Notes under the pieces: model-generated
The model's input: the letters and a program-made list of their open reading frames with translations, nothing else
What the model was told of the DNA's origin: nothing
The model's database searches: none
Shown: one piece after another, positions 1,714-48,095 of the stretch
Layout: each line of letters begins with the position of its first letter
Numbering within the stretch: position 1 is the first letter of the stretch
Position numbers and translations under genes: made by a program
IMG/VR virus record: IMGVR_UViG_3300017766_004476
Location: 12,413-76,412 of that record
Length of the DNA stretch: 64,000 nucleotides
Reading direction: 5' to 3' (one strand)
Source: a virus
Lineage: Duplodnaviria; Heunggongvirae; Uroviricota; Caudoviricetes

Positions 1714-1754
1714 ATGTTTATTAGAAAGCCGCTCATACCGCGGATTTCACTATT

Positions 1755-1790
1755 ATTTATAATTGATATATTCGGAATGCAAGTATAATA
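1755..1790 (+). promoter_or_regulatory. sigma70-like promoter candidate for the plus-strand 3-gene operon
   Basis: TTGATA (1763-1768) and TATAAT (1784-1789) lie in AT-rich DNA just upstream of the ATG at 1798. Confidence 0.3.
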
Positions 1791-1797
1791 AAAAGTA

Positions 1798-2418
1798 ATG
1801 AAAAATATCACTATCAATATTAATGTACCAGAGCTTACAGAAGATACGAGTATTAATGTAACAGTTAACGGCTCTAAGATAAAAGCTCCTCTCAAGTGTG
1901 GACCAGTACCAAGCGACGTTGATTATCAAAATTTTATTTGTTATTGTAATGAACAAGGGGTGCATTTAAATAGTGTACAAAAAAATATTGCTCATAACGT
2001 TCTAGATTTAGATATTAATAATGAGGAATTATTTCATGCATTCACAGAAGAACGGCAAACTGGAACAACTACAGTGCTAGGACTACTAGTAGCTTGGTTT
2101 ATTCGAGTAAAGCAGTATAAGAGAATTTTAGTTATATGTCATAATTCAGGCGCTGTTCTCCGATTTCAAAAATTGATTATGGGTTGTATTCGTTGCCCTC
2201 TCCAAGTAGTAAAAAAATCAGAAATCGTTTATGGTGATACTGTTATCACATTTATGACCCAGGATGATCTATCAACTAAATTATGCGGTTATTTTGAATT
2301 TCAACTTACGGTTTTAGATAATGTCACAGTTCCAGCAATAAACATTATTAAAGATATTCACTTAATAAGTGAGAGAATAATTGATATGACCACTACAGAG
2401 GGCGAAATTAAAAATTGA
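1798..2418 (+). CDS. hypothetical protein (206 aa)
   Basis: First gene of the only plus-strand operon in the window. Confidence 0.5.
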   Translation: MKNITININVPELTEDTSINVTVNGSKIKAPLKCGPVPSDVDYQNFICYCNEQGVHLNSVQKNIAHNVLDLDINNEELFHAFTEERQTGTTTVLGLLVAWFIRVKQYKRILVICHNSGAVLRFQKLIMGCIRCPLQVVKKSEIVYGDTVITFMTQDDLSTKLCGYFEFQLTVLDNVTVPAINIIKDIHLISERIIDMTTTEGEIKN

Positions 2419-2447
2419 TATTCCTTATAGTTCATTTATATTAAATT

Positions 2448-2981
2448 ATGAATGATATTTTTGTTACAGGTGATACTCACTTTGGACAAAAAGGTATCTT
2501 AAAGTTTCGTCCATTTCAGACAGTACAAGAAATGGATGAAACTATAATTGAAAATTATAACAATGTAGTTAAGCCGGGTGATACAGTTTACCATATTGGT
2601 GATTTATGCCATACTGTTGATGTTAAAGTTTTTCATAGCTACCTTTCACGTCTCAATGGAAGAATCATATTGATTAAAGGTAACCACGATCGAACATCGT
2701 GGAAGGCTCCTGAATTGTTTACTGGTCCTTATAACATGTATGAGACAATTATTGAAGGGAGAGATGTTACCTTCTGTCATTATGCAATGTTGATGTGGAA
2801 GAATTCCCATCGGGGTGCATATCACCTCTATGGACATTCACATGGAACTCTAGAAGATAATCCTCATTCACTCTCATTCGATGTAGGGGTAGATTGTCAC
2901 GACTTTAAGCCTTTACATTGGTCTCAAGTTGTCGAGAGAATGAAAACGAAAAATTGGAAAGCAATTGACAAGCACAAGTAA
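2448..2981 (+). CDS. calcineurin-like metallophosphoesterase
   Basis: GDTHFG, GDL, GNHD and GHSHG motifs occur in canonical order. Confidence 0.8.
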   Translation: MNDIFVTGDTHFGQKGILKFRPFQTVQEMDETIIENYNNVVKPGDTVYHIGDLCHTVDVKVFHSYLSRLNGRIILIKGNHDRTSWKAPELFTGPYNMYETIIEGRDVTFCHYAMLMWKNSHRGAYHLYGHSHGTLEDNPHSLSFDVGVDCHDFKPLHWSQVVERMKTKNWKAIDKHK

Positions 2982-2986
2982 ATTTT

Positions 2987-3340
2987 ATGTTACAAGTAAT
3001 ACAACAAGAATCGGACAGCGATAAAATATGTACTACCTCCCCTTTTACCAATTATGAACTAATAGTAATTGATACTGATAAATGGTATATTTCGATAGAT
3101 AAACTCTGTAAACAAGGAGGCTTTGAAAGGATATGGAAAGTTACTCCTAATACAAAGAGTCGAAAATACTCATTTCCTGCGGTAGGTACAGTAGATGCAA
3201 GTTTTAAATGTATAACAATTTTAGATTGTTATGATGAACTCATTTCGATGTTACGAGAGAATAATATAACCAAAATATATAAAGTTAATCAGTTTAAGCC
3301 GATAATCTTATATAAGTTTGCTATTATTCAAGGAGAGTAA
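2987..3340 (+). CDS. hypothetical protein (117 aa)
   Basis: ORF in the same operon. Confidence 0.45.
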   Translation: MLQVIQQESDSDKICTTSPFTNYELIVIDTDKWYISIDKLCKQGGFERIWKVTPNTKSRKYSFPAVGTVDASFKCITILDCYDELISMLRENNITKIYKVNQFKPIILYKFAIIQGE

Positions 3341-3958
3341 TTACTTCTTATACTGAAGATATTTCTTAAGGGCCTGATCAGCAGAGAGGCCCTTTTTTCC
3401 ACCTGCTTGATAATACTTCTTCCAATATTCAGCAAGGTACTTAGAGTCATTTTGCTTAATGCCTTCAGGTATCATTCCGTATTTAATCCGCGCAATACCT
3501 GCAGCAAATTTATCATTATTAAGAAGGAGCTTATTTAAATCCTTTTCGAGGGTAGGAATACTATTAGTGACTCCTGCATACTGCGAGAGAGTATTAAGCG
3601 TTTTAGGTCTACTTTTTAAATATCTCAAGACATCCTTTCCAGTTGCTGGCTCAATCTGGAAATATGATAATGCAGGTCCTCCACCGAGTTGCTTCTTATA
3701 TTTACCTCCATCAGACTCAACCACTGCAGTCAAATATAATAATTCCCGAGCTTGAGGAGTGTCGGGATAAAATGCTTTAAATGCTGCAACTGATGAATCA
3801 GATAAAGACTTTAAGGTAGCAAGATTATTAGTCTGAACAGTAGGCGCCTTTGCGGGTGCCGCATCAACCGGAGACGTTAAAGAAGATACTCCGAGCGCTG
3901 CGCCTGCAAGCACTGATTTCCAATTCTCTGCGACTAAATATTGTTTGAAGGTAATCAT
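3341..3958 (-). CDS. CTS-like-leader protein with a lytic-transglycosylase-like motif (candidate packaged cell-wall hydrolase)
   Basis: N-terminus is MITFKQYLVAEN, followed by a hydrophobic segment. ES…GGPALSYFQIE resembles the SLT catalytic Glu plus the AxGLMQ motif. Confidence 0.5.
   Translation of the reverse strand: MITFKQYLVAENWKSVLAGAALGVSSLTSPVDAAPAKAPTVQTNNLATLKSLSDSSVAAFKAFYPDTPQARELLYLTAVVESDGGKYKKQLGGGPALSYFQIEPATGKDVLRYLKSRPKTLNTLSQYAGVTNSIPTLEKDLNKLLLNNDKFAAGIARIKYGMIPEGIKQNDSKYLAEYWKKYYQAGGKKGLSADQALKKYLQYKK
3370..3398 (+). terminator. rho-independent terminator for the plus-strand operon
   Basis: GGGCC…GGCCC hairpin followed by TTTTTT, embedded in the 3' coding end of the convergent minus-strand gene. 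Confidence 0.6.
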
Positions 3959-4100
3959 TATAATTATTTAAGATATATGGAAACTGATAACAATGCAACT
4001 GTTATTTTAACCTCCGAAGAACTTGCAGTCCTTAAGTGGTGGGAGTGTGATAATTATCATGAGTGGGAAAGATTAGCTCGGAGAGATTATCATTACTGGC

Positions 4101-4601
4101 CTACTTAACCTGGAATACTCCCCAAGTATTACTCTTATCAATATATAGAATGTCAATTTTATCTGCATTCCGCTCTAATACAGATTTATAAATCCGACCC
4201 CTTTCTACATTACATTCATAAAGAAATGTGTTTATTTGTCTGGTAGAAGCGAAGTACTTTAAACTATAAATTATATTTGTAAAGATGCTGTTCATTCTAG
4301 AGCCATATTTTTCTCTATTTTTATCTACAGACCTTACATACCCCTTAACATACCAATCGATGGTAGAATACTTATCAAAGGATGGTATTGTTGGTGACCC
4401 ACCTCGAGTCATTTCCTGCTTTAAATATTCAACAGTATGAGGGTCACTGTAAATATTAAAAACTACATCGAGCCACCGATCATGATCTCTTTCGAATACA
4501 AATCGATCCGTAAATGTATCTGAATCAATGTCTACCGTATCTTTTAATTCAGCATTACCTATTCGATATGCTTCGGAAAAATATGCCTTAAAATCAATCA
4601 T
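4101..4601 (-). CDS. hypothetical protein with CTS-like leader (MIDFKAYFSEAY)
   Basis: Start moved to the internal Met whose leader matches 7164..7697. Confidence 0.5.
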   Translation of the reverse strand: MIDFKAYFSEAYRIGNAELKDTVDIDSDTFTDRFVFERDHDRWLDVVFNIYSDPHTVEYLKQEMTRGGSPTIPSFDKYSTIDWYVKGYVRSVDKNREKYGSRMNSIFTNIIYSLKYFASTRQINTFLYECNVERGRIYKSVLERNADKIDILYIDKSNTWGVFQVK

Positions 4602-5626
4602 TATTTCCAAACTCCTGTATATAATTGAATACCTACCCCTATCAATTTAGTAAGCTCTTCGTTCGGATACCATTTGTTTCCCATTATCTGACGAGTGAAT
4701 ACAGAATTTTCAGGATGGCTAGTTACAATATATCTATGACCATTAAACGAGCTCTCTATTGCATTATACTTCTTAAATTCGCTCTTTAATATATCAATAT
4801 GCTCAGGAAAAAACTTCATCTTAAGATTACTATTGGGGATGAACTCAATCTCATGAACATCTCCATGTAGGGTATTAAATGTAGCATTATCATAGTAACC
4901 TACAACATCTTGAGGCTTAATCTCCTTTATTGCATCTCCTATAATCTCCTTCTCTCTATGAAAGTTACGCAGGGTTTCGAGACCATGGATTTCATTACCA
5001 AATACGAGACGAGCAGCATTAACTACATGAACTGCAAAGAGTCCTACATTAAAGATAGGAAGAATTGTATGAGAAGTTACTATTACAAGAGACCTTCCAT
5101 GAGTTTGAAGGAGAGTTTCTGAACCAATATTCATTACATGATACCCTCCAGTCCTTCCAAATAGTTGTGAATGACGAGTAAAGTATTGATACTCTTCACC
5201 CTCTTTCACCTTTAATGATTGACCACCCTTTAGTAAATCTAGATCTTTTTGAGTAAAGCTAGTCCAGAAACGTTGAACCCTTACCGGCTCTTTTGATGTC
5301 TTAAAGGTGAGATACTTATCCAACTCTTTCCATTTGCGAAAGTATGAATATCCTCCTAGATGCTTAGTAAGTGCCTGGAGGGCAAAGATTACATCAGGAT
5401 ACTTACGCTTAATCTCATTCGGTACTGGCTTAGATGTAACTACCTTAAAGTGACGCGGACCTTCAGATTCAAATTGTCCACCTGCACGAATCCACTCTCT
5501 CAAAATACCATCCCACTCAGATGTTCCATTCTTAATAGATTCCATCTGCTGACGCACCTGTGAGGTCATCGACTCACAGACGAGATGGAATTGCTTAAAC
5601 GATTGCATATAAGAGTATTTATACAA
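4601..5626 (-). CDS. hypothetical protein (341 aa)
   Basis: Long ORF. The GNEIHG and HGDVHE motifs are not in canonical phosphoesterase order. Confidence 0.5.
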   Translation of the reverse strand: MYKYSYMQSFKQFHLVCESMTSQVRQQMESIKNGTSEWDGILREWIRAGGQFESEGPRHFKVVTSKPVPNEIKRKYPDVIFALQALTKHLGGYSYFRKWKELDKYLTFKTSKEPVRVQRFWTSFTQKDLDLLKGGQSLKVKEGEEYQYFTRHSQLFGRTGGYHVMNIGSETLLQTHGRSLVIVTSHTILPIFNVGLFAVHVVNAARLVFGNEIHGLETLRNFHREKEIIGDAIKEIKPQDVVGYYDNATFNTLHGDVHEIEFIPNSNLKMKFFPEHIDILKSEFKKYNAIESSFNGHRYIVTSHPENSVFTRQIMGNKWYPNEELTKLIGVGIQLYTGVWK

Positions 5627-5715
5627 GAGGAAACCTATTTAGCTTTGGTTCTAAATAGGTTTTATTTTAAAATGATAGTTTGATATACGAATGATTAAAA
5701 TCGATTTAGATCAAA

Positions 5716-5985
5716 TTATTGGTCTGGTGCAGTCTCGTACATCTTAGCGAACTTAGCAAGAATTGAAACGATATGAGCATCAGGTTCAGTTCCTCCAGAC
5801 GGGTCATTCTCTTGAACTAATTCAATCAAATAATCAATGTCGCCTTTTGTAAGCGGTACTGGTTCTGCAGAATCGATTAGATCTGCTTGCTGTTCGTCAT
5901 TAGAAGGTACATTGCCTATTGATGGGCGCTGACCTTTAAGGACTTCGTCGTATGCTTCAGAAAGCAATTCCATGTGGTGTTTCAT
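5716..5985 (-). CDS. small protein, MKHHMELLSEAY leader family
   Basis: Internal-Met start. Its first 17 aa and 45 nt are identical to the next paralog. Confidence 0.5.
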   Translation of the reverse strand: MKHHMELLSEAYDEVLKGQRPSIGNVPSNDEQQADLIDSAEPVPLTKGDIDYLIELVQENDPSGGTEPDAHIVSILAKFAKMYETAPDQ

Positions 5986-5993
5986 AACATTAT

Positions 5994-6401
5994 TTAATAT
6001 TTCAATGGTGCTGAAACGACTTGTCCGTCTGGATACACAACGTCTACGTTTAATTGACCTGAATCTGCCATTTCTTGAAAATTTGGAATATTGCTCCAAG
6101 ACCATGGATCGGAACCGATTTCCTCTTCAACCACTCGTTGACGATCTCGTTTATTAGATATTGAATGTACAATCCGACTAAAGTTTGTAATCACATCACC
6201 AATAGCACCTCCAGAGTCGTACTCTTCAGGGCGTTCCGGGTCTGATTGCCGGGTATACATATGAACAATAATTTCTTCGATAGTTACAGATATAGGATTT
6301 TCTGGATTGTTATTTTGAGGATCTGGAACATTAGACATTGAAGGTCTATTTTTAAGAACCTCGTCGTATGCTTCAGAAAGCAATTCCATGTGGTGTTTCA
6401 T
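5994..6401 (-). CDS. small protein, MKHHMELLSEAY leader family
   Basis: Tandem paralog of 5716..5985. Confidence 0.55.
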   Translation of the reverse strand: MKHHMELLSEAYDEVLKNRPSMSNVPDPQNNNPENPISVTIEEIIVHMYTRQSDPERPEEYDSGGAIGDVITNFSRIVHSISNKRDRQRVVEEEIGSDPWSWSNIPNFQEMADSGQLNVDVVYPDGQVVSAPLKY

Positions 6402-6497
6402 AATATTATTTATACTAAAGAGGACGCACTCTACCTTTTGTTCTAAACGTATTTGATTGAAAGAATATACTCTGATAGTGTTTGTTAAAGAACTTAT

Positions 6498-7160
6498 TTA
6501 GATCTTATTCTCTTCAAAGGGCTTCGGAGCCGTATTTAAAGGTGTCCAGTAGTGAGTAACCCAATCTTTACTTTTGAGTAGTTTAATAAGCTTTGCCAAG
6601 AGAGGTACTGCTTCTTTAAACTGAAATCTTCCAATATGAATAGCAACATCTCTCCCCAGCTTCTGAACTTCAGTAACTGGTTGAAGCTTTTCATATGCTT
6701 GAGAATAGCGCTCACCTGCTTCTCTGACCTCTTTCCACCACTGTTCTAAAGAACCTTTATAACCGTATTCTCGGACATGATAGTTGTAGTTACTCTCAAT
6801 CTGCTGTTTAACATCCTCATCAATAGGCATCCATCCTTTACGAGGAGCAAGAGACTGATAGATTTTCTCTGCCTTTTCTAATGTGGCCCTGCGCCCATAA
6901 TGATATCCGCCACCTCCGAAATCGTGCTTTGAATCACTATAGGAACTGCGATGAATCAAATCACCACCATGTTCAAGCCAATAAAGCCATGAACCCGTCC
7001 CATGAGTAACATTAGGATTAAGGCGTTCGTTGAACATCCCCTCTGGTCCTTCCCACCGTTGCTGGTTATGAACTTTAGCAAATGCTTCTATCATCTCAGG
7101 AGTTCTATAAGGATGATCTGAACCATATACTTCATTAAAGTATTGTTTAAATTTTTCCAT
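6498..7160 (-). CDS. hypothetical protein with CTS-like leader (MEKFKQYFNEVY)
   Basis: Shared leader motif, 220 aa. Confidence 0.55.
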   Translation of the reverse strand: MEKFKQYFNEVYGSDHPYRTPEMIEAFAKVHNQQRWEGPEGMFNERLNPNVTHGTGSWLYWLEHGGDLIHRSSYSDSKHDFGGGGYHYGRRATLEKAEKIYQSLAPRKGWMPIDEDVKQQIESNYNYHVREYGYKGSLEQWWKEVREAGERYSQAYEKLQPVTEVQKLGRDVAIHIGRFQFKEAVPLLAKLIKLLKSKDWVTHYWTPLNTAPKPFEENKI

Positions 7161-7163
7161 ATA

Positions 7164-7697
7164 TTAATATCTTATATCAGGGTTTGAAGGATTAAAAGAA
7201 CCTTTATTGCCAGTTGCTGATTTAATTTGGCTCGGATCAAATACTACAAACTCTCTATCTGCACTCGGGGTATCAGAAAAACCAATTATTCCATCATACC
7301 CCATCTTCTCCCATTTCTTTATGAGTTGTGGGAGATTGTCATGATACTGAAGATAAGAAGACTTACCTTCAGGAAGTAAGTCTTGAGGTACTGGATTAGT
7401 TATTCTAAGGTAAGCAGGAATAACTCGTGCAGATACGAGCTCTTTTCTATTTACGAAAGCGGCATATTCATGAGAGTTTTGGGCAATAGTACTAGCATAC
7501 TCCGGTTCATCAGTAAAATAACTCGGATAATCTTTAAGGAATTTATCTTCAAAGCTTACCATTGCTCGACCATGATAAACTCTCAACGGTCTACCCTCAC
7601 TATCAACTACTTTAGATCCTGCAAACCATTTTTGAAACTCAGGAGTAAGTACTTGATTACGATTCTCAGCTAAAAAATATGTCTTAAAGTCGATCAT
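7164..7697 (-). CDS. CTS-like-leader protein, paralog pair A (YHGR motif; conserved C-terminal tail)
   Basis: MIDFKTYFLAEN leader, then KVVDSEGRPLRVYHGR. The C-terminus IKSATGNKGSFNPSNPDIRY is shared with 7701..8237. Confidence 0.6.
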   Translation of the reverse strand: MIDFKTYFLAENRNQVLTPEFQKWFAGSKVVDSEGRPLRVYHGRAMVSFEDKFLKDYPSYFTDEPEYASTIAQNSHEYAAFVNRKELVSARVIPAYLRITNPVPQDLLPEGKSSYLQYHDNLPQLIKKWEKMGYDGIIGFSDTPSADREFVVFDPSQIKSATGNKGSFNPSNPDIRY

Positions 7698-7700
7698 AGG

Positions 7701-8237
7701 TTAATGTCTGATGTCAGGGTTAGAAGGATTGAAGGAACCTTTGTTACCGGTTGCAGATTTGATCTGCTCTGGATAAAACGGAACATATGAATCACCTTTT
7801 CCTTCAACTTTATTAGAGTAAACCAAACCATCATACCCCTCTCGTTTAGCTCTCTGGATTATATATGCCCACATAGGGCCTAGTGTATCATCTTCAACTC
7901 GTTTAGGGTTTTTAATTGATAAATAGACAGGCACTATATTAGGCGCTTTACCTTTCATATTTTGAGTCATCCATTCATAATCTTCTGGAGATATAGTCCA
8001 ACCTCTTAAAATTTTATTAGCTTGTTCTGAAGAGCCAAAATGGCCTAATGCTCCACCTCCACCCATAAGCGTAGCTTCCTGATCTTTAAAAGTATTAAAA
8101 TCGTCAACTCGTCCATGATAAACAACTAAAGGATTACCTTGAGAATCAACCACCTTTGATCCCTTAAACCACTCTTTAAAGGCTGGTGATTCAGTCACTT
8201 TATAGTTCTCTGTAAAGTATTCCTTAAAGGTGTGCAT
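7701..8237 (-). CDS. CTS-like-leader protein, paralog pair B
   Basis: MHTFKEYFTENY leader, then KVVDSQGNPLVVYHGR and the same C-terminal tail. Confidence 0.6.
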   Translation of the reverse strand: MHTFKEYFTENYKVTESPAFKEWFKGSKVVDSQGNPLVVYHGRVDDFNTFKDQEATLMGGGGALGHFGSSEQANKILRGWTISPEDYEWMTQNMKGKAPNIVPVYLSIKNPKRVEDDTLGPMWAYIIQRAKREGYDGLVYSNKVEGKGDSYVPFYPEQIKSATGNKGSFNPSNPDIRH

Positions 8238-8557
8238 TAGTTTGAAAAGAGAGCAACGTTCTGACCATCTTGAGATACCCCAATAGCCATTCCGTTCTGA
8301 GCATTTGCATCTTGATCGAAATAGGAAAGACGTACTAAGTAGAAGAAATCTTCAGGAGTACTCTTCTTCCAATCAGAACCATAACCGTGCTCTTTAGAGA
8401 TACTAATAAGACGTGCAGTATCCTTTATGTTCTGAACATATGATTCATCTCCGAGTTGAGGGGCAACCTTTAAGAGGATGTTTTCGAGCTTTAAGAAGTC
8501 CGGAGTTGCATTCATCTCTTCATATGCTTCTGCAAGTAATTCTAAATGATGTTTCAT
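8237..8557 (-). CDS. small protein, MKHHLELLAEAY leader family
   Basis: Shares the leader family. Confidence 0.5.
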   Translation of the reverse strand: MKHHLELLAEAYEEMNATPDFLKLENILLKVAPQLGDESYVQNIKDTARLISISKEHGYGSDWKKSTPEDFFYLVRLSYFDQDANAQNGMAIGVSQDGQNVALFSN

Positions 8558-8569
8558 GATAATATTTAA

Positions 8570-9049
8570 TTAGTATTGAGGACGTTGCGGATCCATCTGT
8601 GAGACTGGACCATCAAAGGTTTCATATTCACCAAGTGCCTGATCATCACCATGCGGGTCAACCTGAGGAGAGGTATAGTTCTGAACCTGATGTATATCTG
8701 CAACCTCATAATAAGCAGAGGTAGCCACATGAGTAGCAACCTTTACAATATCCTCTTCTGAGAGATCAGTCTTAGGCTCAAAAAGCCATTCATGATTGTC
8801 TTCATAGATATAGGCATGTTCATCACCCTGAATAATCTTTGACACAGAAGTCCAATTAGTGTAGCTATTACGCGGATGAAAGGTAATATTAAAGCCTTCT
8901 TTAAGTTTGAAGATAAGCTGGGCAATCTCATCAGCAGACTTACCTTTAATATCAACATTTTGAGAAGCGGACATATTCTCTATGAGAAGTCGAGTCTGTT
9001 GTACCTTTATATAGGCTTTCTCAAGAAGGAACTTTTCGGTGCGGTTCAT
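8570..9049 (-). CDS. hypothetical acidic protein (159 aa)
   Basis: ORF only. Confidence 0.5.
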   Translation of the reverse strand: MNRTEKFLLEKAYIKVQQTRLLIENMSASQNVDIKGKSADEIAQLIFKLKEGFNITFHPRNSYTNWTSVSKIIQGDEHAYIYEDNHEWLFEPKTDLSEEDIVKVATHVATSAYYEVADIHQVQNYTSPQVDPHGDDQALGEYETFDGPVSQMDPQRPQY

Positions 9050-9187
9050 ATTATTATTATTTAATGATTATAAAGGCAGAACTAAAAAAGTGCAAAAAAA
9101 TTCACAAAAAATTTTTGAGAATCTTGAGAAATATAAACTGAAAGAAAGAGTGATGTTCGAGAGAATGATATTATTATAATATCATAA

Positions 9188-9688
9188 ATGAAACTATTTC
9201 AACAAGTTAAAGAGATTAGATCTCAGCAAGGAGAGTTACACTTCCAAAGGTATGCTATTATAGAGACGCATAAGTGGGCTCTCTATATTCATCGGATCTA
9301 TAAAGAAGATAAAGATGAACATTTACATAGTCATCCGTGGAACTTCATGAGTGTAATTCTGTGGGGTGCGTATATAGAACAATATGCTCCTGAGTATAAT
9401 CGGATGAGAGTAAAGTGTGAAGGATCATTCAGTAAGGCTGATCGGAACTACTTTCACAAGATCGTTGACATACTCAGGGGACCCGTAACTACGTTATTCT
9501 TTACGTGGGGAACACATCAACCATGGCATTACTGGGTTAAGGGTGAGAAAGTAGAATCAACAGAGTATCGGAAACAGAAGAATATTGCCCGGATGGCACA
9601 AGAGGTTGCACATAAGATAGATGCACAGATAGTTAAGAAGCTCCAGGAGCAGATTCCAGTACTAGAGAATCGTAAAATTTTACGATAA
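9188..9688 (+). CDS. hypothetical protein (166 aa)
   Basis: Plus-strand ORF immediately left of the island boundary. His-rich HLHSHPW segment. Confidence 0.45.
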   Translation: MKLFQQVKEIRSQQGELHFQRYAIIETHKWALYIHRIYKEDKDEHLHSHPWNFMSVILWGAYIEQYAPEYNRMRVKCEGSFSKADRNYFHKIVDILRGPVTTLFFTWGTHQPWHYWVKGEKVESTEYRKQKNIARMAQEVAHKIDAQIVKKLQEQIPVLENRKILR

Positions 9689-9921
9689 AAAAATTTCCGA
9701 GAACCGAGAACTTAAAAAGAATTTGGAAAAAAATTGGCATGGGGTCCGGATCGGAGTGCAAGCTTTTTCTATATCTAATAAATTTTCGTACTTAAGGCTT
9801 GCATTTCGCGGTGTGCTCCGATCCCCTCTCCACCTTTCGAGATGGCTGAGGCTCTCGAGAGCACACCGCTCTTAATTGTTCTAGTATCATTAAAGCTTGC
9901 CAGTTTGTTTAGATCAATGCT

Positions 9922-10179
9922 CTAGTAGCGCATAGTGACCACCTTCCTTTCTTTCACAGCATCCAATCCGGACAGCTGAGTGCACCCCTTCACTGAGGTG
10001 GCTGACCCATCCACAGCACCGCAATCAAATTGATTACCTTTACTCATCATCGGAGTAAAGTGCTCATCGCTCCAGCTCACACTCAGCTCAGCGCCCTGCA
10101 CTGCTGGGCTCCCTATCACAGGGCGCTGAGTCATGAGTATGTGTCCTGCGCTCGGTGTGATGAATATGTTCTTAATCAT
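9922..10179 (-). CDS. island gene 8, hypothetical (85 aa)
   Basis: GC-rich ORF. Promoter at 10193-10221 (TTGCAC-N17-TATAAG), 13-nt leader. Confidence 0.5.
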   Translation of the reverse strand: MIKNIFITPSAGHILMTQRPVIGSPAVQGAELSVSWSDEHFTPMMSKGNQFDCGAVDGSATSVKGCTQLSGLDAVKERKVVTMRY

Positions 10180-10192
10180 AACGTCTGCCTAT

Positions 10193-10221
10193 CTTATAGC
10201 TGCAGCCCGATTAGAGTGCAA
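10193..10221 (-). promoter_or_regulatory. island promoter TTGCAC-N17-TATAAG
   Basis: Exact hexamers and spacing. One of 8 copies. Confidence 0.5.
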
Positions 10222-10230
10222 CCGTTTTGT

Positions 10231-10626
10231 TTACTTTACTTCAACAGCCTCAACGAGCGGACCGTTCTGGTTGCCCACGCACCACATAATCCAAGCCCCA
10301 GCAATGGTGCGTGCGCGGAGCTCCCAACCGTTCGACATCGCAGCCAAGTAGCCGCAAATCCAATCTGGACGGAACGACTGGCGGATGCTCTCAGGCGTCA
10401 AGCCATATTCGTATGCAGAGAGCTCGATGCGCTCCAATCCGAACTCGTTGAAGTGATACGATGCCTCGCCTGCATAGATGTGTACATCGTTTCGCTTATC
10501 AATCTCGATGGTCACATCGCCGGGTGCCTCGATGACTTGCTTCATCGTTGCGCGACGCTCTGCGCAGGCTTCAGCAGTTAGCGCTTCAGGGTTGGTGATG
10601 GTCGTGAGCTTGAATTTATATTTCAT
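10231..10626 (-). CDS. island gene 7, hypothetical (131 aa)
   Basis: GC-rich ORF. The -10 CATACT lies 6 nt before the ATG, predicting a leaderless mRNA. Confidence 0.55.
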   Translation of the reverse strand: MKYKFKLTTITNPEALTAEACAERRATMKQVIEAPGDVTIEIDKRNDVHIYAGEASYHFNEFGLERIELSAYEYGLTPESIRQSFRPDWICGYLAAMSNGWELRARTIAGAWIMWCVGNQNGPLVEAVEVK

Positions 10627-10632
10627 AGATGC

Positions 10633-10661
10633 AGTATGGCTCTTTTTCGGAGGGAGTGCAA
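10633..10661 (-). promoter_or_regulatory. island promoter TTGCAC-N17-CATACT
   Basis: Exact hexamers and spacing. Confidence 0.5.
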
Positions 10662-10910
10662 CTACTTTGTGGGGCGCGGCAGGCTCGGAGGAATCGTCAG
10701 GAGGCTCCGACTCGTGATGTTCATGATGCCCACCACCGGCACCTGCTCTACCAAATTGGGAATGATTGCTTGCACTCCGCAGATGAAATGGAACTCAGCA
10801 TCGCGGCCTGCCTTGCCCTTCGGCCACCCCTTCTTGTCGAGGAGCTGGAGCTCGGTGAGGTGCTTAAGGAGCATTGCGTGTAGTTCGTCGAATGTGATGT
10901 TCTTTATCAT
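10662..10910 (-). CDS. island gene 6, hypothetical (82 aa)
   Basis: Same architecture. Promoter at 10917-10945. Confidence 0.5.
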   Translation of the reverse strand: MIKNITFDELHAMLLKHLTELQLLDKKGWPKGKAGRDAEFHFICGVQAIIPNLVEQVPVVGIMNITSRSLLTIPPSLPRPTK

Positions 10911-10916
10911 GTCAAT

Positions 10917-10945
10917 AGTATGGTTGATTTCTCGTTCTAGTGCAA
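10917..10945 (-). promoter_or_regulatory. island promoter TTGCAC-N17-CATACT
   Basis: Exact hexamers, 6 nt to the ATG. Confidence 0.5.
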
Positions 10946-11158
10946 CTACTCATTCCGAAATCGTGCCACAATGTTGTCCAAGTCAACACCCCGCATCACG
11001 TCCAATCCGCAATGGGTGCTCGGATGCAAGCGCTTATTGTCCAATGCGCACACATCCTTCATCCGCTGGTGCAGCTCCGGCTTGAGCACTTTGGCCCAGC
11101 TTGCGATGTGCTCTTCTTGGATTTTGATTCCTTCCGCAACTGTGAACTTAATTTTCAT
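10946..11158 (-). CDS. island gene 5, hypothetical (70 aa)
   Basis: Same architecture. Promoter at 11165-11193. Confidence 0.5.
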   Translation of the reverse strand: MKIKFTVAEGIKIQEEHIASWAKVLKPELHQRMKDVCALDNKRLHPSTHCGLDVMRGVDLDNIVARFRNE

Positions 11159-11164
11159 ACAGTC

Positions 11165-11193
11165 AGTATGGCTCTAAATTTGTTTCTGTGCAA
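11165..11193 (-). promoter_or_regulatory. island promoter TTGCAC-N17-CATACT
   Basis: Exact hexamers, 6 nt to the ATG. Confidence 0.5.
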
Positions 11194-11312
11194 CTACTTT
11201 TCCGAATTCTTTTCAGCGCCTACGCTCGAGAGAATGCACTCCCTCGCACACCGCAATAGCCCTAAGCGCTGAAAGGAACTCGGAGGGGCTGCCTCCGAGT
11301 AGTGTAAAGGCT

Positions 11313-11591
11313 TTAGGCCGCAGAGGCAACAGCTTTCTTCCGCACGGCGCGCTTCTTCGGAGCCGGAGCCTCGGGCTCAACCGCTTTGGGAGCCGGAGCC
11401 GCCACGAGCTTCGCCTGCTTGGGCTCGCGCTTGGCCCGCTCGTTGAGCCAGCGGAACGTGGGGGTGTGCAGAACGGCCGGATAGGTTCCGTTGCTCTGCG
11501 CCTGAGCGATGAGCTGGTTGACCGCATCGGTCGCGCTGAGCTCTTTGCGCTTGACGCGCTCCTTGTAGCTGTGATGCATTGTTGTCTTCAT
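11313..11591 (-). CDS. island gene 4: small basic protein with Ala/Pro/Lys-rich histone-H1-like tail (AAPAPKAVEPEAPAPKKRAVRKKAVASAA)
   Basis: Start at MKTTMHH. Promoter at 11635-11663 (TTGCAC-N17-TAATAT), 44-nt leader. Confidence 0.5.
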   Translation of the reverse strand: MKTTMHHSYKERVKRKELSATDAVNQLIAQAQSNGTYPAVLHTPTFRWLNERAKREPKQAKLVAAPAPKAVEPEAPAPKKRAVRKKAVASAA

Positions 11592-11634
11592 ATGTTTTTG
11601 TTTCCGACAGTAATCGTTATTGATTACAAAAAAG

Positions 11635-11663
11635 ATATTAGCTGTTTCCCGTGGGCAGTGCAA
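11635..11663 (-). promoter_or_regulatory. island promoter TTGCAC-N17-TAATAT
   Basis: Exact spacing. Confidence 0.45.
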
Positions 11664-11669
11664 CTCTTT

Positions 11670-11960
11670 TTAGAGTTTAATTACAACTACTTCCGCAATA
11701 TAGTGCTTGCCCGTCCCGTGCTGTTTGCCGAATATAGAGAACACCCAGCCGGAGATCTCGTCGTTCATATCCCGCATCCAGGAAACTTCTTCCGCCTGGA
11801 GCTGCTCGTCGTCGGGCAATGCATCGACGTACGCATTGATTGCAGCCATCTCGTGCGAGGGCTCGGGCCTCCGGTCCACCGCATCGTAGTGCTGGCCCCG
11901 GAGGCTGGGCGTATCGAAGTAGTTCTTAATCGTTATCCGGACCGCATATTTCATTTTCAT
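11670..11960 (-). CDS. island gene 3, hypothetical (~96 aa)
   Basis: Start placed at the second ATG so the -10 (CACACT, 11967-11972) lies 6 nt upstream, as in its siblings. Confidence 0.5.
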   Translation of the reverse strand: MKMKYAVRITIKNYFDTPSLRGQHYDAVDRRPEPSHEMAAINAYVDALPDDEQLQAEEVSWMRDMNDEISGWVFSIFGKQHGTGKHYIAEVVVIKL

Positions 11961-11966
11961 ACTCAT

Positions 11967-11995
11967 AGTGTGGCTCCGTTTCTAGTTCTGTGCAA
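11967..11995 (-). promoter_or_regulatory. island promoter TTGCAC-N17-CACACT
   Basis: Exact spacing. Confidence 0.45.
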
Positions 11996-11998
11996 CTA

Positions 11999-12370
11999 TT
12001 AATTGTAGAAATGTTTCCGAATTACAGAGTTGCCTTCGATGGTGAGAACGACTTCAATACAGCACTCGCTGTCTTCCGAATTCTGATACATGACCCAGCA
12101 GCCCGGAGTGTGCCACCCGCTGACCGTATTCTTATCCTTATCGCGCCAGAACACCACCCCCGACAGCTCTCCTTGTGGAATGTCGAGCTTTTCCGCCACC
12201 TCGATACACAAGTTGCCGATATCAGCTTCCATCCCCATCCCATCCTTGCCGAATCCGATAGGCTGAGCATAGACGGGACCACGGCCCAGCCATTGGCTGA
12301 AGCACATCCACAATTTGCTATCGTCGATGTAGTCAATCATCTTCCGGTCAATTGTCGTATCATTTATCAT
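11999..12370 (-). CDS. island gene 2, hypothetical (~123 aa)
   Basis: The -10 CATACT (12377-12382) sits inside the longest ORF, so the start is moved to the Met 6 nt downstream (MINDTT…). Confidence 0.5.
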   Translation of the reverse strand: MINDTTIDRKMIDYIDDSKLWMCFSQWLGRGPVYAQPIGFGKDGMGMEADIGNLCIEVAEKLDIPQGELSGVVFWRDKDKNTVSGWHTPGCWVMYQNSEDSECCIEVVLTIEGNSVIRKHFYN

Positions 12371-12376
12371 ACCCAG

Positions 12377-12405
12377 AGTATGGCTCATCCGCAGGAGCAG
12401 TGCAA
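12377..12405 (-). promoter_or_regulatory. island promoter TTGCAC-N17-CATACT
   Basis: Exact spacing. Confidence 0.5.
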
Positions 12406-12447
12406 CAATTTTCTAAAATATATTTCACGGCCCACCCGAATTTTTGC

Positions 12448-12476
12448 TTGCACATTCCCGAATTTTTCTTTATAAT
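12448..12476 (+). promoter_or_regulatory. plus-strand island promoter P1 (TTGCAC-N17-TATAAT)
   Basis: Consensus-like hexamers. Transcript would start GGGATTGGACCCCTCG. Confidence 0.5.
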
Positions 12477-12527
12477 GGGATTGGACCCCTCGTTACTTTA
12501 CTTTACAAAGAAAGCCCGAATAATGTA

Positions 12528-12556
12528 TTGCACTGCTAAAAAGAAACCGCTATAAT
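12528..12556 (+). promoter_or_regulatory. plus-strand island promoter P2 (TTGCAC-N17-TATAAT)
   Basis: Tandem copy of P1. Transcript would start GGGTCTGGACCTCTCG. Confidence 0.5.
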
Positions 12557-12562
12557 GGGTCT

Positions 12563-12668
12563 GGACCTCTCGTCGCTCGGCCTCCCGCACATAGGGAAAG
12601 GGAGATTATCGCTCCCTCTCGGTGTGAAAAGCCAGCTCCAAATCCTTTTCTTTTCTGCTGGCTTTTTA
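12563..12668 (+). ncRNA. candidate small non-coding RNA (~105 nt from P2, ~185 nt from P1) ending at an intrinsic terminator
   Basis: Promoter, then internal hairpin AGGGAGattatcgcTCCCT, then terminator AAAGCCAGC…GCTGGCTTT + TTTAT (12627-12668). No plausible ORF or SD. Confidence 0.4.
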
Positions 12669-12728
12669 TCAAGGAGAGTGCGACACTCTCGTCGAATGTC
12701 GCACTCTGTGAACTTTCAGACTTGCCTT

Positions 12729-13265
12729 TTAGCCGTTCGCTTCGACCGGCTGCTCAGCGATGTTTTCGACTTGGGGCTGGCCTTCCGGAGCCGGAGTGGG
12801 CTCGGGCGTCGCACCTTCCGGGGCCTGCGCAGCCTTTTTGCTGGCCTTCTTCGCGGCGGGCTTGGTCTTCTTGGCTTCCTTCGCAGCGCGCGCTTCCGCA
12901 GCCTTCGCAGCGCCATCGGACGGGGCGTTCGTCTTCATCTTCCCGTTCAGCTCGAACAGCTTGGCGATGAGCTTTTCCGGATTGGTGCTTGCCATCTTGT
13001 GCATCTCGAACTCCTGGGCCTTCTTGCCCGCGCGCTTGCGCACTTCCTCAATCGTCGCGCCCTTCCGCAGGTCGCTCAGCACGTTCTTGGGAACGTAGAA
13101 TTCGACGATTTCGTCGACCTCAACCTTGCGCCCGAGAATCTCGGAGCGACCCTTGGCCTTGTCGGCGAGGTAGTTGGCGTTGGTATTGCGGGAAGCACCG
13201 GTCAAGCAGCAGACGAGCTGCGGGCACTTCGATTTGGATTCGTTCTTTTTTGCTTTGCGAGCCAT
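12729..13265 (-). CDS. island gene 1: Lys-rich basic protein with AKKxAAK/PEP-rich C-terminal tail (histone-H1/AlgP-like tail)
   Basis: Start at MARKAKK. Promoter at 13335-13363 (TTGCAC-N17-TATCTT) with ~70-nt leader. The antisense 336-aa plus ORF is low-complexity and rejected. Confidence 0.55.
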   Translation of the reverse strand: MARKAKKNESKSKCPQLVCCLTGASRNTNANYLADKAKGRSEILGRKVEVDEIVEFYVPKNVLSDLRKGATIEEVRKRAGKKAQEFEMHKMASTNPEKLIAKLFELNGKMKTNAPSDGAAKAAEARAAKEAKKTKPAAKKASKKAAQAPEGATPEPTPAPEGQPQVENIAEQPVEANG

Positions 13266-13334
13266 ATGTTTGGTTCTTTCTATTTGTTGTTGTTTGTTTG
13301 CTTTACTACTATTCAGCACTTAGCTGATGTTGAT

Positions 13335-13363
13335 AAGATATGTTCTATTTTCGTTCTGTGCAA
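13335..13363 (-). promoter_or_regulatory. island promoter TTGCAC-N17-TATCTT
   Basis: Exact spacing. Confidence 0.4.
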
Positions 13364-13513
13364 CTTTATTTTGAACTTTTTTTCACTTTTGTTTAGCTTA
13401 GTGTTTCTTATCTACATCGTGCGCAAGCACTTTCTTATGCACCAATCTATATGCTTATTAATAACTAGCAAGAAAAATCTGAATAAAAAGTTCACGAAAT
13501 CCCGAATAAAAGC

Positions 13514-13541
13514 TTGCATCCCGGAGAAATATCGCTATAAT
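13514..13541 (+). promoter_or_regulatory. sigma70-like promoter TTGCAT-N16-TATAAT driving a 12-codon ORF and a structured RNA
   Basis: Followed by a perfect SD AAGGAG (13554-13559) and ATG at 13565 (MLRMRSAHDKRS*, 13565-13603). Confidence 0.45.
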
Positions 13542-13708
13542 ATGTTCTCTTTTAAGGAGTTCTAATGTTGAGAATGAGATCCGCTCATGATAAGAGATCT
13601 TAATCGGATCAGATTAGGGATGGGGCTCTGGGTTGCGGAGTGCAGATGTGGATAAGGTCTGAGGCCTCCCGGCTGCGGATCTGGCTCCGGTCCGGATGCA
13701 GCTCGGCA

Positions 13709-13785
13709 TTCAGGGAACGCGCTCTGCAGAGAAATCAGATTTACTTGAATGATTTTTGATTTCTCTGCAGAGCGCGTTCCCTGAA
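13709..13785. repeat. 29-bp perfect inverted repeat (arms 13709-13737 and 13757-13785) with a 19-nt loop
   Basis: TTCAGGGAACGCGCTCTGCAGAGAAATCA / TGATTTCTCTGCAGAGCGCGTTCCCTGAA, exact reverse complements. Confidence 0.9.
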
Positions 13786-14283
13786 AGAACACAGCGCGCC
13801 CGAATAAAAGCTTGATTATCCCTATAATGCGAGAACACTGTGCACTTTAATGATTCTCTGAGGCCTTTGTTCTAAGTCGTAAAGGTATGAATCACTGTGT
13901 TTGTATATGAAATGAAACAAACCTATTTAGAACAAAAGCTACATAGGGATCCGCAGGGGTTAAAAGATATGTCTGACTCGGTAGATATGTAATGAAGAGG
14001 AAGCGCTGAGGAGAGCCTGGCGGGGCAGAGAGTTCTGATACGTGTGTACGCGGTTCTGATAACGTGACGCGGGTATCAGATTGAGACGGGGCTAATAGAT
14101 AGGCCCCGCGAGGTTCTGAATATGAGGGTTCTTTAAACTATCTGAAGGATTACGGATTATAAGAGAGCTACCGGACCGAATAATGCGGATCGGTAGAGGC
14201 TTATAGGGCTCGGAAGGAGTCCGGAATATCTAGAGTTGAGAAAGTTGGAAAAAAATTATCCGGATCCGGGTACCTTTATACGC

Positions 14284-14359
14284 GACCAATTTTCCACTCT
14301 CTTCAGATCACCAATTCTCTTGAGTATTCTCATCCACTCTCTTCAGATCACCAATTCTC
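14284..14359. repeat. 27-bp direct repeat x2 (CCACTCTCTTCAGATCACCAATTCTCT)
   Basis: Two copies separated by ~22 nt, just outside the island's right boundary. Confidence 0.8.
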
Positions 14360-14391
14360 TCAAGCAGTCTCTGCCTCCTTATTTCTCTCCA

Positions 14392-14435
14392 TAAAAAATC
14401 CCATTACTAGATCTATCTCAATTTCTAGTAATGGG
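14392..14435 (-). terminator. rho-independent terminator downstream of 14456..14767
   Basis: CCCATTACTAGA…TCTAGTAATGGG hairpin followed by TTTTTT on the minus strand. Confidence 0.6.
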
Positions 14436-14455
14436 AAGAGTAAAAGACTCGATCT

Positions 14456-14767
14456 TTATTCTATATACTTCCAGAGTATATCGTAAATACGTCTCAGGTC
14501 CTTCTTAACCTCATTAGTTATCACTCCGTTCTCGTCAGGGTACTTCTTGTTTATGTGTTCTATTCCTATTAAGCATTCATGAGCCATCATACTGAAGTTC
14601 ATCCGTGCTTCATCCTTTCTTTGCTCTTCAGGAGTCATCTCAGGATGTACCGGCTTAGGTACTAGTGTTGCCTGATCTTTCATCTCTTTAGGGAAGATGT
14701 CGGGAGGAGTAGGAGAGGTTATCTGATCGTATGCCTCTGCCAAGAGTTGGGTGTCTTTATTCTTCAT
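14456..14767 (-). CDS. small protein, MKNKDTQLLAEAY leader family
   Basis: Leader family member. Its 5' ~40 nt repeats in the next two loci. Confidence 0.5.
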   Translation of the reverse strand: MKNKDTQLLAEAYDQITSPTPPDIFPKEMKDQATLVPKPVHPEMTPEEQRKDEARMNFSMMAHECLIGIEHINKKYPDENGVITNEVKKDLRRIYDILWKYIE

Positions 14768-15006
14768 GGTCGTTCATCTCCATCTACCCGGAGAAGGGTT
14801 AACAGCTTATGTGCTAAGTCCGCCTCTTCAGGAGTGAGACCTTCTTTCACATCTTTAACATATGACAGCTCCCCCATAAGGCTGTCAATTAACATATGTG
14901 ACTCTTCTTTGGGGTTTAATTTTATGAGAGTTGCTTTGGGGCCTTTAGGCTTATTAACTTTACCTTCATATGCCTCTGCCAAGAGTTGGGTGTCTTTATT
15001 CTTCAT
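14764..15006 (-). CDS. small protein, MKNKDTQLLAEAY leader family
   Basis: Tandem paralog. Confidence 0.5.
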   Translation of the reverse strand: MKNKDTQLLAEAYEGKVNKPKGPKATLIKLNPKEESHMLIDSLMGELSYVKDVKEGLTPEEADLAHKLLTLLRVDGDERP

Positions 15007-15015
15007 TATCTTTAT

Positions 15016-15321
15016 TTAGAGATATTTCCAAATATTCTTTTTACCTAAAGGTATAATCTCAATGCCATCACGGCACAGGAGCAGATAGTTTTCATCACCC
15101 TCTCCGGACCCTTCTAAGAACATCGGAAGTGCTACCTCGATCGGTACCGTACCATCTTCCTTACACTCTTCAATTGCATCTTCAACGCTTCCGAAGACCT
15201 GCGTTAGAATCAGTTCTTTTAACGAAGAGAAGCGGGTACGAATTTTCGGTTGATTGTCCCCGAAATAGTCATCCATTCCAATGAGAATGAATTCGCGATC
15301 TGTTGTCTTATTCTCTTTCAT
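15016..15321 (-). CDS. hypothetical protein (101 aa)
   Basis: ORF. An in-frame stop immediately upstream prevents fusion with the leader remnant. Confidence 0.45.
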   Translation of the reverse strand: MKENKTTDREFILIGMDDYFGDNQPKIRTRFSSLKELILTQVFGSVEDAIEECKEDGTVPIEVALPMFLEGSGEGDENYLLLCRDGIEIIPLGKKNIWKYL

Positions 15322-15409
15322 ACTTTATTTGTTGAGGGAGAAGAAATTGAGGACCTTTAACCTTTTGTTCATATGCCTCTGCCAACAATTGAGCGTCTTT
15401 CTTATTCAT
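15308..15409 (-). pseudogene. 33-codon remnant of the LLAEAY leader family (MNKKDAQLLAEAYEQKVKGP…*)
   Basis: Retains the conserved leader and 5' DNA repeat but stops after 33 codons and overlaps the next gene. Confidence 0.3.
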
Positions 15410-15413
15410 ATTT

Positions 15414-15713
15414 TTATTTAGTGCGGTACACTGTGATAATAGTCTTCTCTTCCTTGCCATCATCTCCATCAACCCACATTTCAAGAGATGTATCATCATC
15501 TACTCCCTCGGTGGGAATACCCAGAAGCCATGATATTAGAGTAACTGTGCGTGAGTTGTTAAGAAGGACAGTTAAACCGAAATCATCATTTGCTTCAAAA
15601 ACCCGTCCTGGGATTTCTACTCCATTATCATACCGCAGGGTTACAAAGTCTCCCTTTGCTAAGCTATTCACTTCTGTTATCTTTATGAGCTTAACTTTCT
15701 TATTCATACACAC
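15414..15713 (-). CDS. hypothetical protein (99 aa)
   Basis: ORF. Confidence 0.45.
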   Translation of the reverse strand: MCMNKKVKLIKITEVNSLAKGDFVTLRYDNGVEIPGRVFEANDDFGLTVLLNNSRTVTLISWLLGIPTEGVDDDTSLEMWVDGDDGKEEKTIITVYRTK

Positions 15714-16650: not shown

Positions 16651-16715
16651 AATCTTTTATTCGTTAATGAAAGATTAAAGGAATTTTTATGTTAATACAA
16701 ATGTTTATTTAGTTT

Positions 16716-26031: not shown

Positions 26032-26121
26032 TGGTACCACAGACTGGACTTGAACCAGCACACTGGGTTAAACCAGCTAGGGATTTTAAATCCCTTGCGT
26101 CTGCCATTTCGCCACTGTGGC
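26032..26121 (-). tRNA. tRNA-Leu(UAA), type II with long variable arm, CCA encoded
   Basis: Acceptor GCCACAG/CTGTGGT, anticodon loop TTTAAAA, variable hairpin CTGG…CCAG, T-arm GCTGG-TTCAAGT-CCAGT, 3' ACCA. Confidence 0.75.
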
Positions 26122-48091: not shown

Positions 48092-48095
48092 ATTT

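Follow-up and report, generated by a model that had tools for sequence, protein, structure and literature searches.

The internal head proteins of phage T4 carry a capsid targeting sequence (CTS), MKTYQEFIAE, which is cleaved before an Ala residue (PMC8442874); the protease gp21 cleaves after L/I-x-E, and in the T4 internal protein IPIII targeting depends on residues 4 and 7, and processing on residues 8 and 10 (PMC9026906). All three T4 internal proteins inhibit type IV restriction enzymes (PMC12373910). In the passage of PMC12373910 that cites Repoila et al. 1994, about ten internal proteins are reported across T-even phages, the ip loci of which are strain-variable, with members that share only the packaging leader. 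The classical packaged and injected ADP-ribosyltransferase is T4 Alt, the short propeptide of which is cut by gp21 (PMC9026906, PMC5512222), and polyvalent proteins of phages and conjugative elements are also predicted to be packaged and injected (Iyer et al. 2017, PMC5512222). Here, a set of genes with short N-terminal leaders is described from a 64-kb stretch of viral DNA (IMG/VR record IMGVR_UViG_3300017766_004476, positions 12,413 to 76,412; referred to below as the window). An initial annotation of this stretch had interpreted the leaders as T4-CTS-like and as located on injected effectors, a reading that is supported by the sequence comparisons presented below.

Two leader families, designated A and B, were located by regular-expression scans of the six-frame translation of the window. 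The family A motif, M..FK.[YF][FLH], was matched six times, each time at the initiator Met of a minus-strand open reading frame (ORF; starts at 3958, 4601, 5608, 7160, 7697 and 8237). The family B motif, LL[AS]EAY, was likewise matched six times, in each case 6–8 residues past a Met and on the minus strand (starts at 5985, 6401, 8557, 14767, 15006 and 15409). Neither motif was matched anywhere else in the six-frame translation: the 12 matches are confined to the minus strand of the 3.3–15.4 kb interval, where each coincides with an initiator Met or follows one closely. Shuffled sequence yielded 0.08–0.13 matches for family A and 0.015–0.02 for family B (maxima of 2 and 1, respectively; 200 shuffles). 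All eleven gene coordinates of the initial annotation are borne out by the list of ORFs and the sequence context of their starts; its count (at least 11) comprises real leader genes only, but is an undercount, as the window holds 12 certain members and one probable member. The overlooked twelfth gene is A3 (MQSFKQFHLVCES, 335 amino acids (aa)), while ORF 8570–9049 (MNRTEKFLLEKAYIKV...RLLIEN; MNRTEKFLLEKAY...RLLIEN) is probably a thirteenth member with a degenerate leader. One or two further leader-type genes were observed beside head genes outside the window. The genes are listed below with their leaders (a slash marks the predicted cut), their cargoes and, for several cargoes, the isoelectric point (pI).

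3341–3958, minus strand: A1, 205 aa, leader MITFKQYLVAE/N, followed by a Gly/Ala-rich hydrophobic segment (residues ~14–27) and a linker that leads to a domain of lytic-transglycosylase fold
4101–4601, minus strand: A2, family A leader MIDFKAYFSE/AY and a 156-aa cargo with no Pfam, PHROG or PDB match
4601–5608, minus strand: A3, family A leader MQSFKQFHLVCE/S and a 323-aa cargo with homologues P0002–P0005
5716–5985, minus strand: B1, family B leader MKHHMELLSE/AY and a 79-aa acidic cargo, pI 4.1
5994–6401, minus strand: B2, family B leader identical to that of B1 and a 125-aa acidic cargo, pI 4.4
6498–7160, minus strand: A4, family A leader MEKFKQYFNE/VY and a 210-aa cargo
7164–7697, minus strand: A5, leader MIDFKTYFLAE/N and an ART-PolyVal ADP-ribosyltransferase (Pfam PF18760, E 9.3e-18; phrog_21376)
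7701–8237, minus strand: A6, leader MHTFKEYFTE/NY and an ART-PolyVal ADP-ribosyltransferase (Pfam PF18760, E 1.9e-17), paralogue of A5
8237–8557, minus strand: B3, family B leader MKHHLELLAE/AY and a 96-aa acidic cargo, pI 4.5
8570–9049, minus strand: probable thirteenth member, MNRTEKFLLE/KAY with a second site RLLIE/N and an acidic cargo, pI 4.7
14456–14767, minus strand: B4, family B leader MKNKDTQLLAE/AY and a 92-aa cargo
14764–15006, minus strand: B5, family B leader identical to that of B4 and a 69-aa cargo; its first 41 nucleotides (nt) are identical to those of B4
15308–15409, minus strand: B6, truncated leader gene, leader MNKKDAQLLAE/AY plus 22 residues, overlapping the next gene

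The start of B1 is an ATG that lies within a longer ORF (5716–6105), and the start of A2 overlaps the stop of A3, which couples the translation of these two genes. The term 'remnant', which had been applied to 15308–15409, is a fair description of this 33-codon stub.

When the N-termini were aligned, as the initial annotation had proposed, the leaders fitted the T4 sequence MKTYQEFIAE/A without gaps. A Glu residue at position 10–12 is invariant across all leaders. Family A displays F4 and Y/F7 (in all six genes), F/L8 and E10 or E11, and the IPIII targeting positions 4 and 7 are hydrophobic or aromatic throughout family A and partially in family B, where B1–B3 possess the hydrophobic L7 but a His at position 4, and B4–B6 are shifted by one residue. 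B1–B3 are identical to the T4 CTS at positions 1, 2, 6, 10 and 11, and conservatively substituted at positions 7–9. The leaders other than that of A1 are short, amphipathic and acidic overall, without a signal-peptide core. As in the Ip1-3 proteins of T4 and T-even phages, the leader comprises ~10 residues at the extreme N-terminus, with hydrophobic residues at positions 4, 7 and 8 and Glu at position 10 followed by Ala, although the leader sequences differ from those of T4 and fall into two classes. As judged from this register, the likeness is more than a passing resemblance.

It is considered probable that the products of the 12–13 genes are precursors of internal head proteins destined for ejection, CTS-tagged in the manner of T4 Ip1-3 and Alt. 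From the sequence we infer the following course, which covers late timing, docking, cleavage at Glu, virion residence, injection and every cargo activity. Transcription would occur late, from TAAATA-type promoters, and the N-terminal leader of 10–12 residues would serve as a CTS that docks the precursor onto the prohead scaffolding core. The gp21-type serine protease of the phage would then cut off the leader after the conserved Glu (...L-x-E/A-Y, or ...F-x-E followed by N, A or V and Y), and the mature cargo would remain in the filled head and enter the host alongside the DNA. Once inside, the two ADP-ribosyltransferases may modify the host in a manner comparable to T4 Alt, A1 may cut the cell wall locally by means of its lytic-transglycosylase fold, and the small acidic proteins may inhibit host defences, comparable to T4 Ip1-3. 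The mechanism as such is already known from T4; the present set stands out by the unusually large repertoire in one genome (12–13 leader genes versus three in T4), the two leader classes and the predicted enzymes among its cargoes.

The DNA appears to stem from a freshwater phage that has not been cultured and that belongs to the T4 superfamily as a distant relative of T4. As no head genes are present within the 64-kb window, contigs were tiled past its left end. Logan contig L121 is identical to window positions 1–5974 (100%) and extends ~9 kb to a gp5-like baseplate hub; this hub is 100% identical on L136 (IMG/VR contig 3300017747_003762), which shares 4.2 kb with L121 (99.86% identity) and 8 kb with L129 (100%). 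L129 was also recovered independently by the IMG/VR scan for the family A pattern. According to this tiling, the protease gene lies ~20 kb past the left end of the window. The following genes were identified on L129:

a gp4-like head-closure gene
a 149-aa core-like gene (MSQSLEQLYNE..)
a Peptidase_S77 gene of the T4 gp21 family (E 1.3e-29), with an N-terminus (..KLLIEG) that resembles LLIE of T4 gp21
a 303-aa scaffold-like gene, so called for the coiled-coil look of its product and because it is flanked by the gp21 and gp23 genes
a Gp23 capsid gene (E 1.4e-86)
a 266-aa gene (..NLYKLIFE/N) straight after the capsid gene
a 295-aa gene following it, which begins MKSFKQYFIEEY, a family A leader behind the capsid gene

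The 303-aa scaffold-like protein has no Pfam or PHROG match. As in T4, the leader genes are accordingly accompanied in the tiled genome by a gp21-type protease, a scaffold-like gene and Gp23. Further, weaker pointers to the T4 superfamily are an RnlA-type ligase, a structural protein for which cyanomyovirus virion proteins are the sole similar sequences, and a 219-aa ORF with 47% identity to proteins of many T4-like coliphages. The window has no close relative in GenBank phages or IMG/VR: searches of the former by megablast with the locus, and of the latter by protein-pattern scans with A6 and B3, produced no match. A query of 16 concatenated window proteins revealed one gene alone that is widely common to T4-like coliphages and Aeromonas phages, and tblastn of a RadA-like and a VWA-like protein retrieved only scattered, uninformative relatives.

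The leader was also shown to be modular outside this genome. A degenerate family B DNA pattern retrieved from IMG/VR both T4-like cyanophage proteins (S-SM2 SSM2_065 and relatives) and, from a contig of 240 kb, MKTYDEFFTEAY.. In metagenomes, the pattern picked out approximately 31 distinct leaders that read MK[STND]KD[QT]QLLEEAY[DE], located at ORF N-termini, and several contigs contain two or three leader genes. Counted with those of the window, the family B-type leaders of the MK.KD.QLLEEAY kind number at least 31. Together, 79 leader proteins (metagenomic members included) fall into 46 cargo clusters. Where Leu, Ala and Tyr are conserved in the 31 distinct metagenomic leaders, 2–6 synonymous codons are in use, the search pattern having fixed amino acids and not codons; this variation at conserved positions argues that selection acts on the leader protein. 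Cargo orthologues in other phages carry leader variants of other sequence and the same pattern: the A3 homologues P0002–P0005 (40–41% identity) begin with MKFLEYL[TI]EAES, and the A4 orthologue P0031 (65% identity) begins with METFAQYFTEAY. A full-text literature search with the leader strings returned no match.

Many of the leader genes are preceded by a TAAATA-containing box at short distance from the ATG:

3965–3971, minus strand: TTAAATA box, 6 nt before the A1 ATG
5616–5623, minus strand: TATAAATA box, 7 nt before the A3 ATG, heading the unit A3-A2
5991–5997, minus strand: TTAAATA box, 5 nt before the B1 ATG
6407–6414, minus strand: TATAAATA box, 5 nt before the B2 ATG
8563–8569, minus strand: TTAAATA box, 5 nt before the B3 ATG, heading the unit B3-A6-A5-A4
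9058–9064, minus strand: TTAAATA box, 8 nt before the ATG at 9049
15013–15019, minus strand: CTAAATA box, 6 nt before the B5 ATG, heading the unit B5-B4
15415–15421, minus strand: CTAAATA box, 5 nt before the B6 ATG

A2, A4, A5, A6 and B4 lack a box of their own and overlap, or are located at most 3 nt from, an upstream leader gene; since the boxless genes abut boxed ones, all thirteen genes fall into eight box-headed units. TAAATA within 20 nt of the start was observed for 7 of the 12 leader genes, versus 3 of 89 other genes (Fisher p 4.8e-6), and on the flanking contigs it occurs at similarly short spacing before the protease gene, the core-like gene and tail-fibre-like genes. The form TATAAATA is the T4 late-promoter consensus. 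These boxes suggest that the leader genes are co-expressed late with the head genes. In the wider set of 67 unique leader ORFs, which takes in cyanophage-type genes and those of the window, 40 have TAAATA just upstream.

Comparison of near-identical strains showed that they differ by cassettes swapped or deleted at the leaders. In L126, from the same lake sample and 97.9% identical over window positions 1–5719 (5.7 kb), B1 and B2 are replaced by one other family B gene (MAHENRHHMELLAEAYDEV.., 118 aa), the A4 orthologue has diverged, and the otherwise conserved A2 body bears METFKQYFSEAY. L049 is 99.5% identical and lacks B5: its alignment blocks overlap by exactly the 41-nt B4/B5 leader, B4 is fused directly to the promoter and leader of B5, with the junction inside the common leader, and the 15308–15409 stretch (B6) is replaced by other DNA. 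This turnover parallels the polymorphic ip loci of T-even phages, where genes likewise cluster in a strain-variable locus and members share the leader alone. As leader DNA is common to all members, the leaders would also act as recombination points for the gain, loss and swap of cassettes.

The main rival explanation is that the leaders are promoter-plus-leader cassettes for recombination and expression only, spread by duplication, and that the proteins are cytoplasmic late in infection without capsid targeting. It would account for the 41 identical nt of B4 and B5 and the strain variant deleted exactly between them, for the approximately 50 nt shared by B1 and B2, and for box and leader travelling together on many metagenomic contigs; modular shuffling via conserved regulatory motifs is also reported for T4-type genomes (PMC2839356, PMC4122927). 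Recombination at leaders, however, fits and is expected under the CTS explanation as well, and the two are largely compatible. As the sole explanation, the cassette model is improbable because conservation acts at the amino-acid level, with synonymous change being free, and because the residues that function in the T4 CTS are matched by the invariant Glu and the hydrophobic positions of these leaders; moreover, cargo orthologues elsewhere keep a leader of other sequence and the same pattern, and the genome encodes a matching protease. The same register and the T4-type prohead protease render it very improbable that the leaders are some other N-terminal tag (an export or membrane signal, a degron or a phage-chaperone handle) with a merely convergent likeness to the T4 CTS, the more so as head-module proteins themselves start with the same pattern. 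What could suggest such a tag is that most cargoes have no recognised function in Pfam, PHROG and PDB searches, and that the Gly/Ala-rich hydrophobic stretch of A1 with its VDA/AP site resembles a Sec signal or the signal-arrest-release (SAR) anchor of a muralytic enzyme, but a hydrophobic segment is found in A1 only. Chance, or a by-product of AT-rich sequence beside start codons, might have been invoked for an AT-rich region with low-complexity upstream boxes; it is refuted, with a negligible residual probability, by 12 matches against about 0.1 expected, by the location of every match at an initiator Met on one strand, and by the recurrence of the leaders on unrelated cargoes across dozens of independent metagenomic contigs. 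Two further candidates, a system of the phiKZ type (S/A-x-E) and an import tag for the phage nucleus, were rejected in view of the T4 Gp23, the 10-residue leader and the fact that no chimallivirus markers were seen.

Several observations weigh against the interpretation of the genes as CTS-tagged internal proteins. The ending L/I-x-E, which the initial annotation had named for the T4 CTS that both families resemble, is strict in family B (L-[AS]-E/A) and in A5 (L-A-E/N), where P3 is Leu, and only loose in family A, as P3 is Phe or Val, not Leu or Ile, in five of the six genes (A1–A4 and A6). The family B cargoes are acidic, while T4 internal proteins are described as highly basic (PMC8442874). 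The link between the window and the head module consists of tiled contigs from different assemblies, with overlaps of 99.86–100%. The box is short and AT-rich and also precedes some non-structural genes on L121, such as that for ribonucleotide reductase, so that late timing is not firmly indicated. The gap of 5–8 nt between box and ATG suggests leaderless or near-leaderless mRNAs, unlike T4. For A1 only, the hydrophobic segment (SVLAGAALGVSSL) and the VDA/AP site, which come after the leader, could possibly mark an exported lysin with a Sec signal or SAR anchor.

With respect to cargo, the two families differ: family A cargoes are of 18–37 kDa with a pI of 6.4–9.7, and family B cargoes of 8–14 kDa with a pI of 4.1–5.6, indicating that leader class tracks cargo class. 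The small cargoes are comparable in size to T4 Ip1, but differ from the T4 internal proteins in being acidic, and several cargoes (18–37 kDa) are enzyme-sized. The cargo domains are mutually unrelated except for A5 and A6, the only pair with BLASTP similarity beyond residue 18. A2, A3, A4, B1–B5 and the metagenomic cargoes have no Pfam or PHROGs family, except for two sub-threshold Pfam matches (B1 and 8570–9049) and DUF6934, and PDB sequence searches with A1, A2, A3, A4, A6, B2 and B3 returned nothing significant.

A5 and A6 score 65.8 and 64.7 bits, respectively, against PF18760 (curated cut-off 31.2). They are analogues of T4 Alt, in that ADP-ribosyltransferases with a short, here predicted, N-terminal propeptide occur in a T4-type phage. 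A5 and A6 differ from Alt in belonging to Pfam ART-PolyVal and not to the Alt/Mod family, in their size (about 19 kDa, with Alt being much larger, at about 70–76 kDa) and in carrying an IP-type leader instead of the 7-residue propeptide of Alt. The two proteins also share a nearly identical C-terminal tail, QIKSATGNKGSFNPSNPDIR[YH] (7164–7230 and 7701–7767); T4 Alt is also processed at its C-terminus. Polyvalent proteins likewise deliver ART-PolyVal and other effector domains with incoming DNA, and in other phages tblastn with A6 matched parts of large polyvalent or virion-associated proteins. In contrast to these, the effectors described here are separate small genes, each with its own leader, with neither a giant polypeptide nor a MuF or portal anchor. 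A5 and A6, single-domain proteins of 177–178 aa, do not combine several effector domains in one polypeptide, as polyvalent proteins do, and resemble single modules of such proteins.

Among the remaining cargoes, A1 possesses an invariant Glu-Ser and a GGGPALSYFQIEP block, common to 22 homologues that lack its first ~55 residues and carry no leader. The AlphaFold (AF2) model of A3, built from six sequences, was too poor for searching (predicted local distance difference test (pLDDT) 59), and a DarT-like assignment of A3, based on weak PDB similarity (E 0.83), was discarded. The A4 cargo domain corresponds to the C-terminal part of the longer proteins P0032 and P0033.

Two more distant systems were compared. 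The ejection proteins of phiKZ-like phages and SPN3US resemble the present set in that many head-internal proteins are cut after Glu by a diverged gp21-type protease and in that paralogues have conserved N-termini, but their propeptides are mostly of 80–130 residues with an S/A-x-E motif, whereas here a T4-type Gp23 is combined with a leader of 10–12 residues. The cyanomyovirus protein S-SM2 SSM2_065, annotated as hypothetical, is encoded by a T4-like phage, has an N-terminus (MKTLGQFLAEAYDKDV) that is nearly the family B core LL[AS]EAYD, and has the late-promoter-like CTAAATAAA upstream; together with its relatives it starts with MKTL.QFL[SA]EAYDKDV, followed by a very basic body. It differs in its highly basic body, in its normal spacer with a ribosome-binding site, and in being the single such match in the examined S-SM2 stretch. 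With respect to T4 itself, the present system further differs in that the box abuts the ATG without a Shine-Dalgarno sequence and that the host is not enterobacterial. Shine-Dalgarno-like sequences were observed for 15 of the 99 window genes, approximately chance level, which suggests a host with Shine-Dalgarno-independent initiation.

Once injected, internal proteins encounter host immunity ahead of all other proteins of the phage, and a short, recognisable leader provides a sequence handle by which injected proteins of uncultured phages may be listed. One genome supplies 12–13 candidates, and a single metagenome pattern scan dozens more with unrelated cargoes, which together can be taken directly as candidates for anti-defence and host-takeover factors. 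The comparisons presented here indicate that the T4 targeting code may be conserved far beyond the enterobacterial T-even phages. A more speculative extension, which we consider unlikely, is that the two leader classes are two sorting codes as well as recombination sites, and that they serve the cassette-exchange of injected anti-defence proteins in a large clade of uncultured freshwater T4-like phages; each code, A for enzyme-sized and neutral-to-basic cargo and B for small acidic cargo resembling inhibitors, could then set another copy number or another position in the prohead core.

The leader genes are divided into two clusters by a GC-rich island at window positions 9700–14300 (GC content 0.49–0.53, versus 0.35–0.42 for the genome), which contains approximately eight small minus-strand ORFs, including a Lys/Ala-rich basic ORF of 196 aa (12729–13319). 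Its presence in the independent assemblies L001 and L049 shows that it is no assembly artefact, and it looks horizontally acquired.

Leader-like patterns of other types were observed on two metagenomic contigs. On L051 (225 kb; 3225–6872), a family B leader gene (MKDKDLELLAEAYD..) adjoins genes starting with MKFDILYKYLVEG.. and MKFDTLVNVLLEG.., neighbours that display a further leader-like pattern ending in L-x-E/G. On L124 (NCBI JAXDEL011878250.1), derived from another phage, an A3 homologue comes after an ADPrib_exo_Tox gene, and four consecutive genes (797–3839), these two among them, located beside tail-fibre-like genes, share the N-terminus M[LK][LVI].IS, which looks like a lineage-specific alternative leader.

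Additional recurrent motifs and genes were observed in the window and beside the head module. The intergenic motif CTAAATAAACAYTTKT recurs at window positions 16712, 17140, 18945 and 25163, and TTTATATTACACA recurs just before the starts at 39673, 24094, 23304 and 40990; both may be further promoter classes or terminator-promoter cassettes. A 187-aa extracytoplasmic function (ECF)-type sigma factor with regions 2 and 4 (39110–39673) may direct one of the promoter classes of the phage. Just downstream of the head module, L129 (6634–7209) encodes a TAAATA-headed 2H-phosphoesterase of the 2',5' RNA ligase superfamily, which is weakly (below threshold) similar to Acb1, a protein that acts against CBASS (cyclic oligonucleotide-based antiphage signalling system). 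The phage also encodes a GmrSD_N (DUF262) domain protein (window 55937–56467, E 2.9e-13), GmrSD_N being the domain found at the N-terminus of those type IV restriction enzymes against which T4 internal proteins act as inhibitors. An NAD-related module comprises a Pfam-confirmed NADAR domain protein (45185–45676) and, as read from the sequence, a phosphoribosyl pyrophosphate (PRPP)-synthetase-like protein (47117–48166), a NadV-like nicotinamide phosphoribosyltransferase (51944–53365) and a fusion of nicotinamide mononucleotide adenylyltransferase (NMNAT) and Nudix domains (53794–54741). Finally, a tRNA-Leu(taa) gene at 26032–26121 adjoins an ORF with an HNH-like motif (25184–26029).

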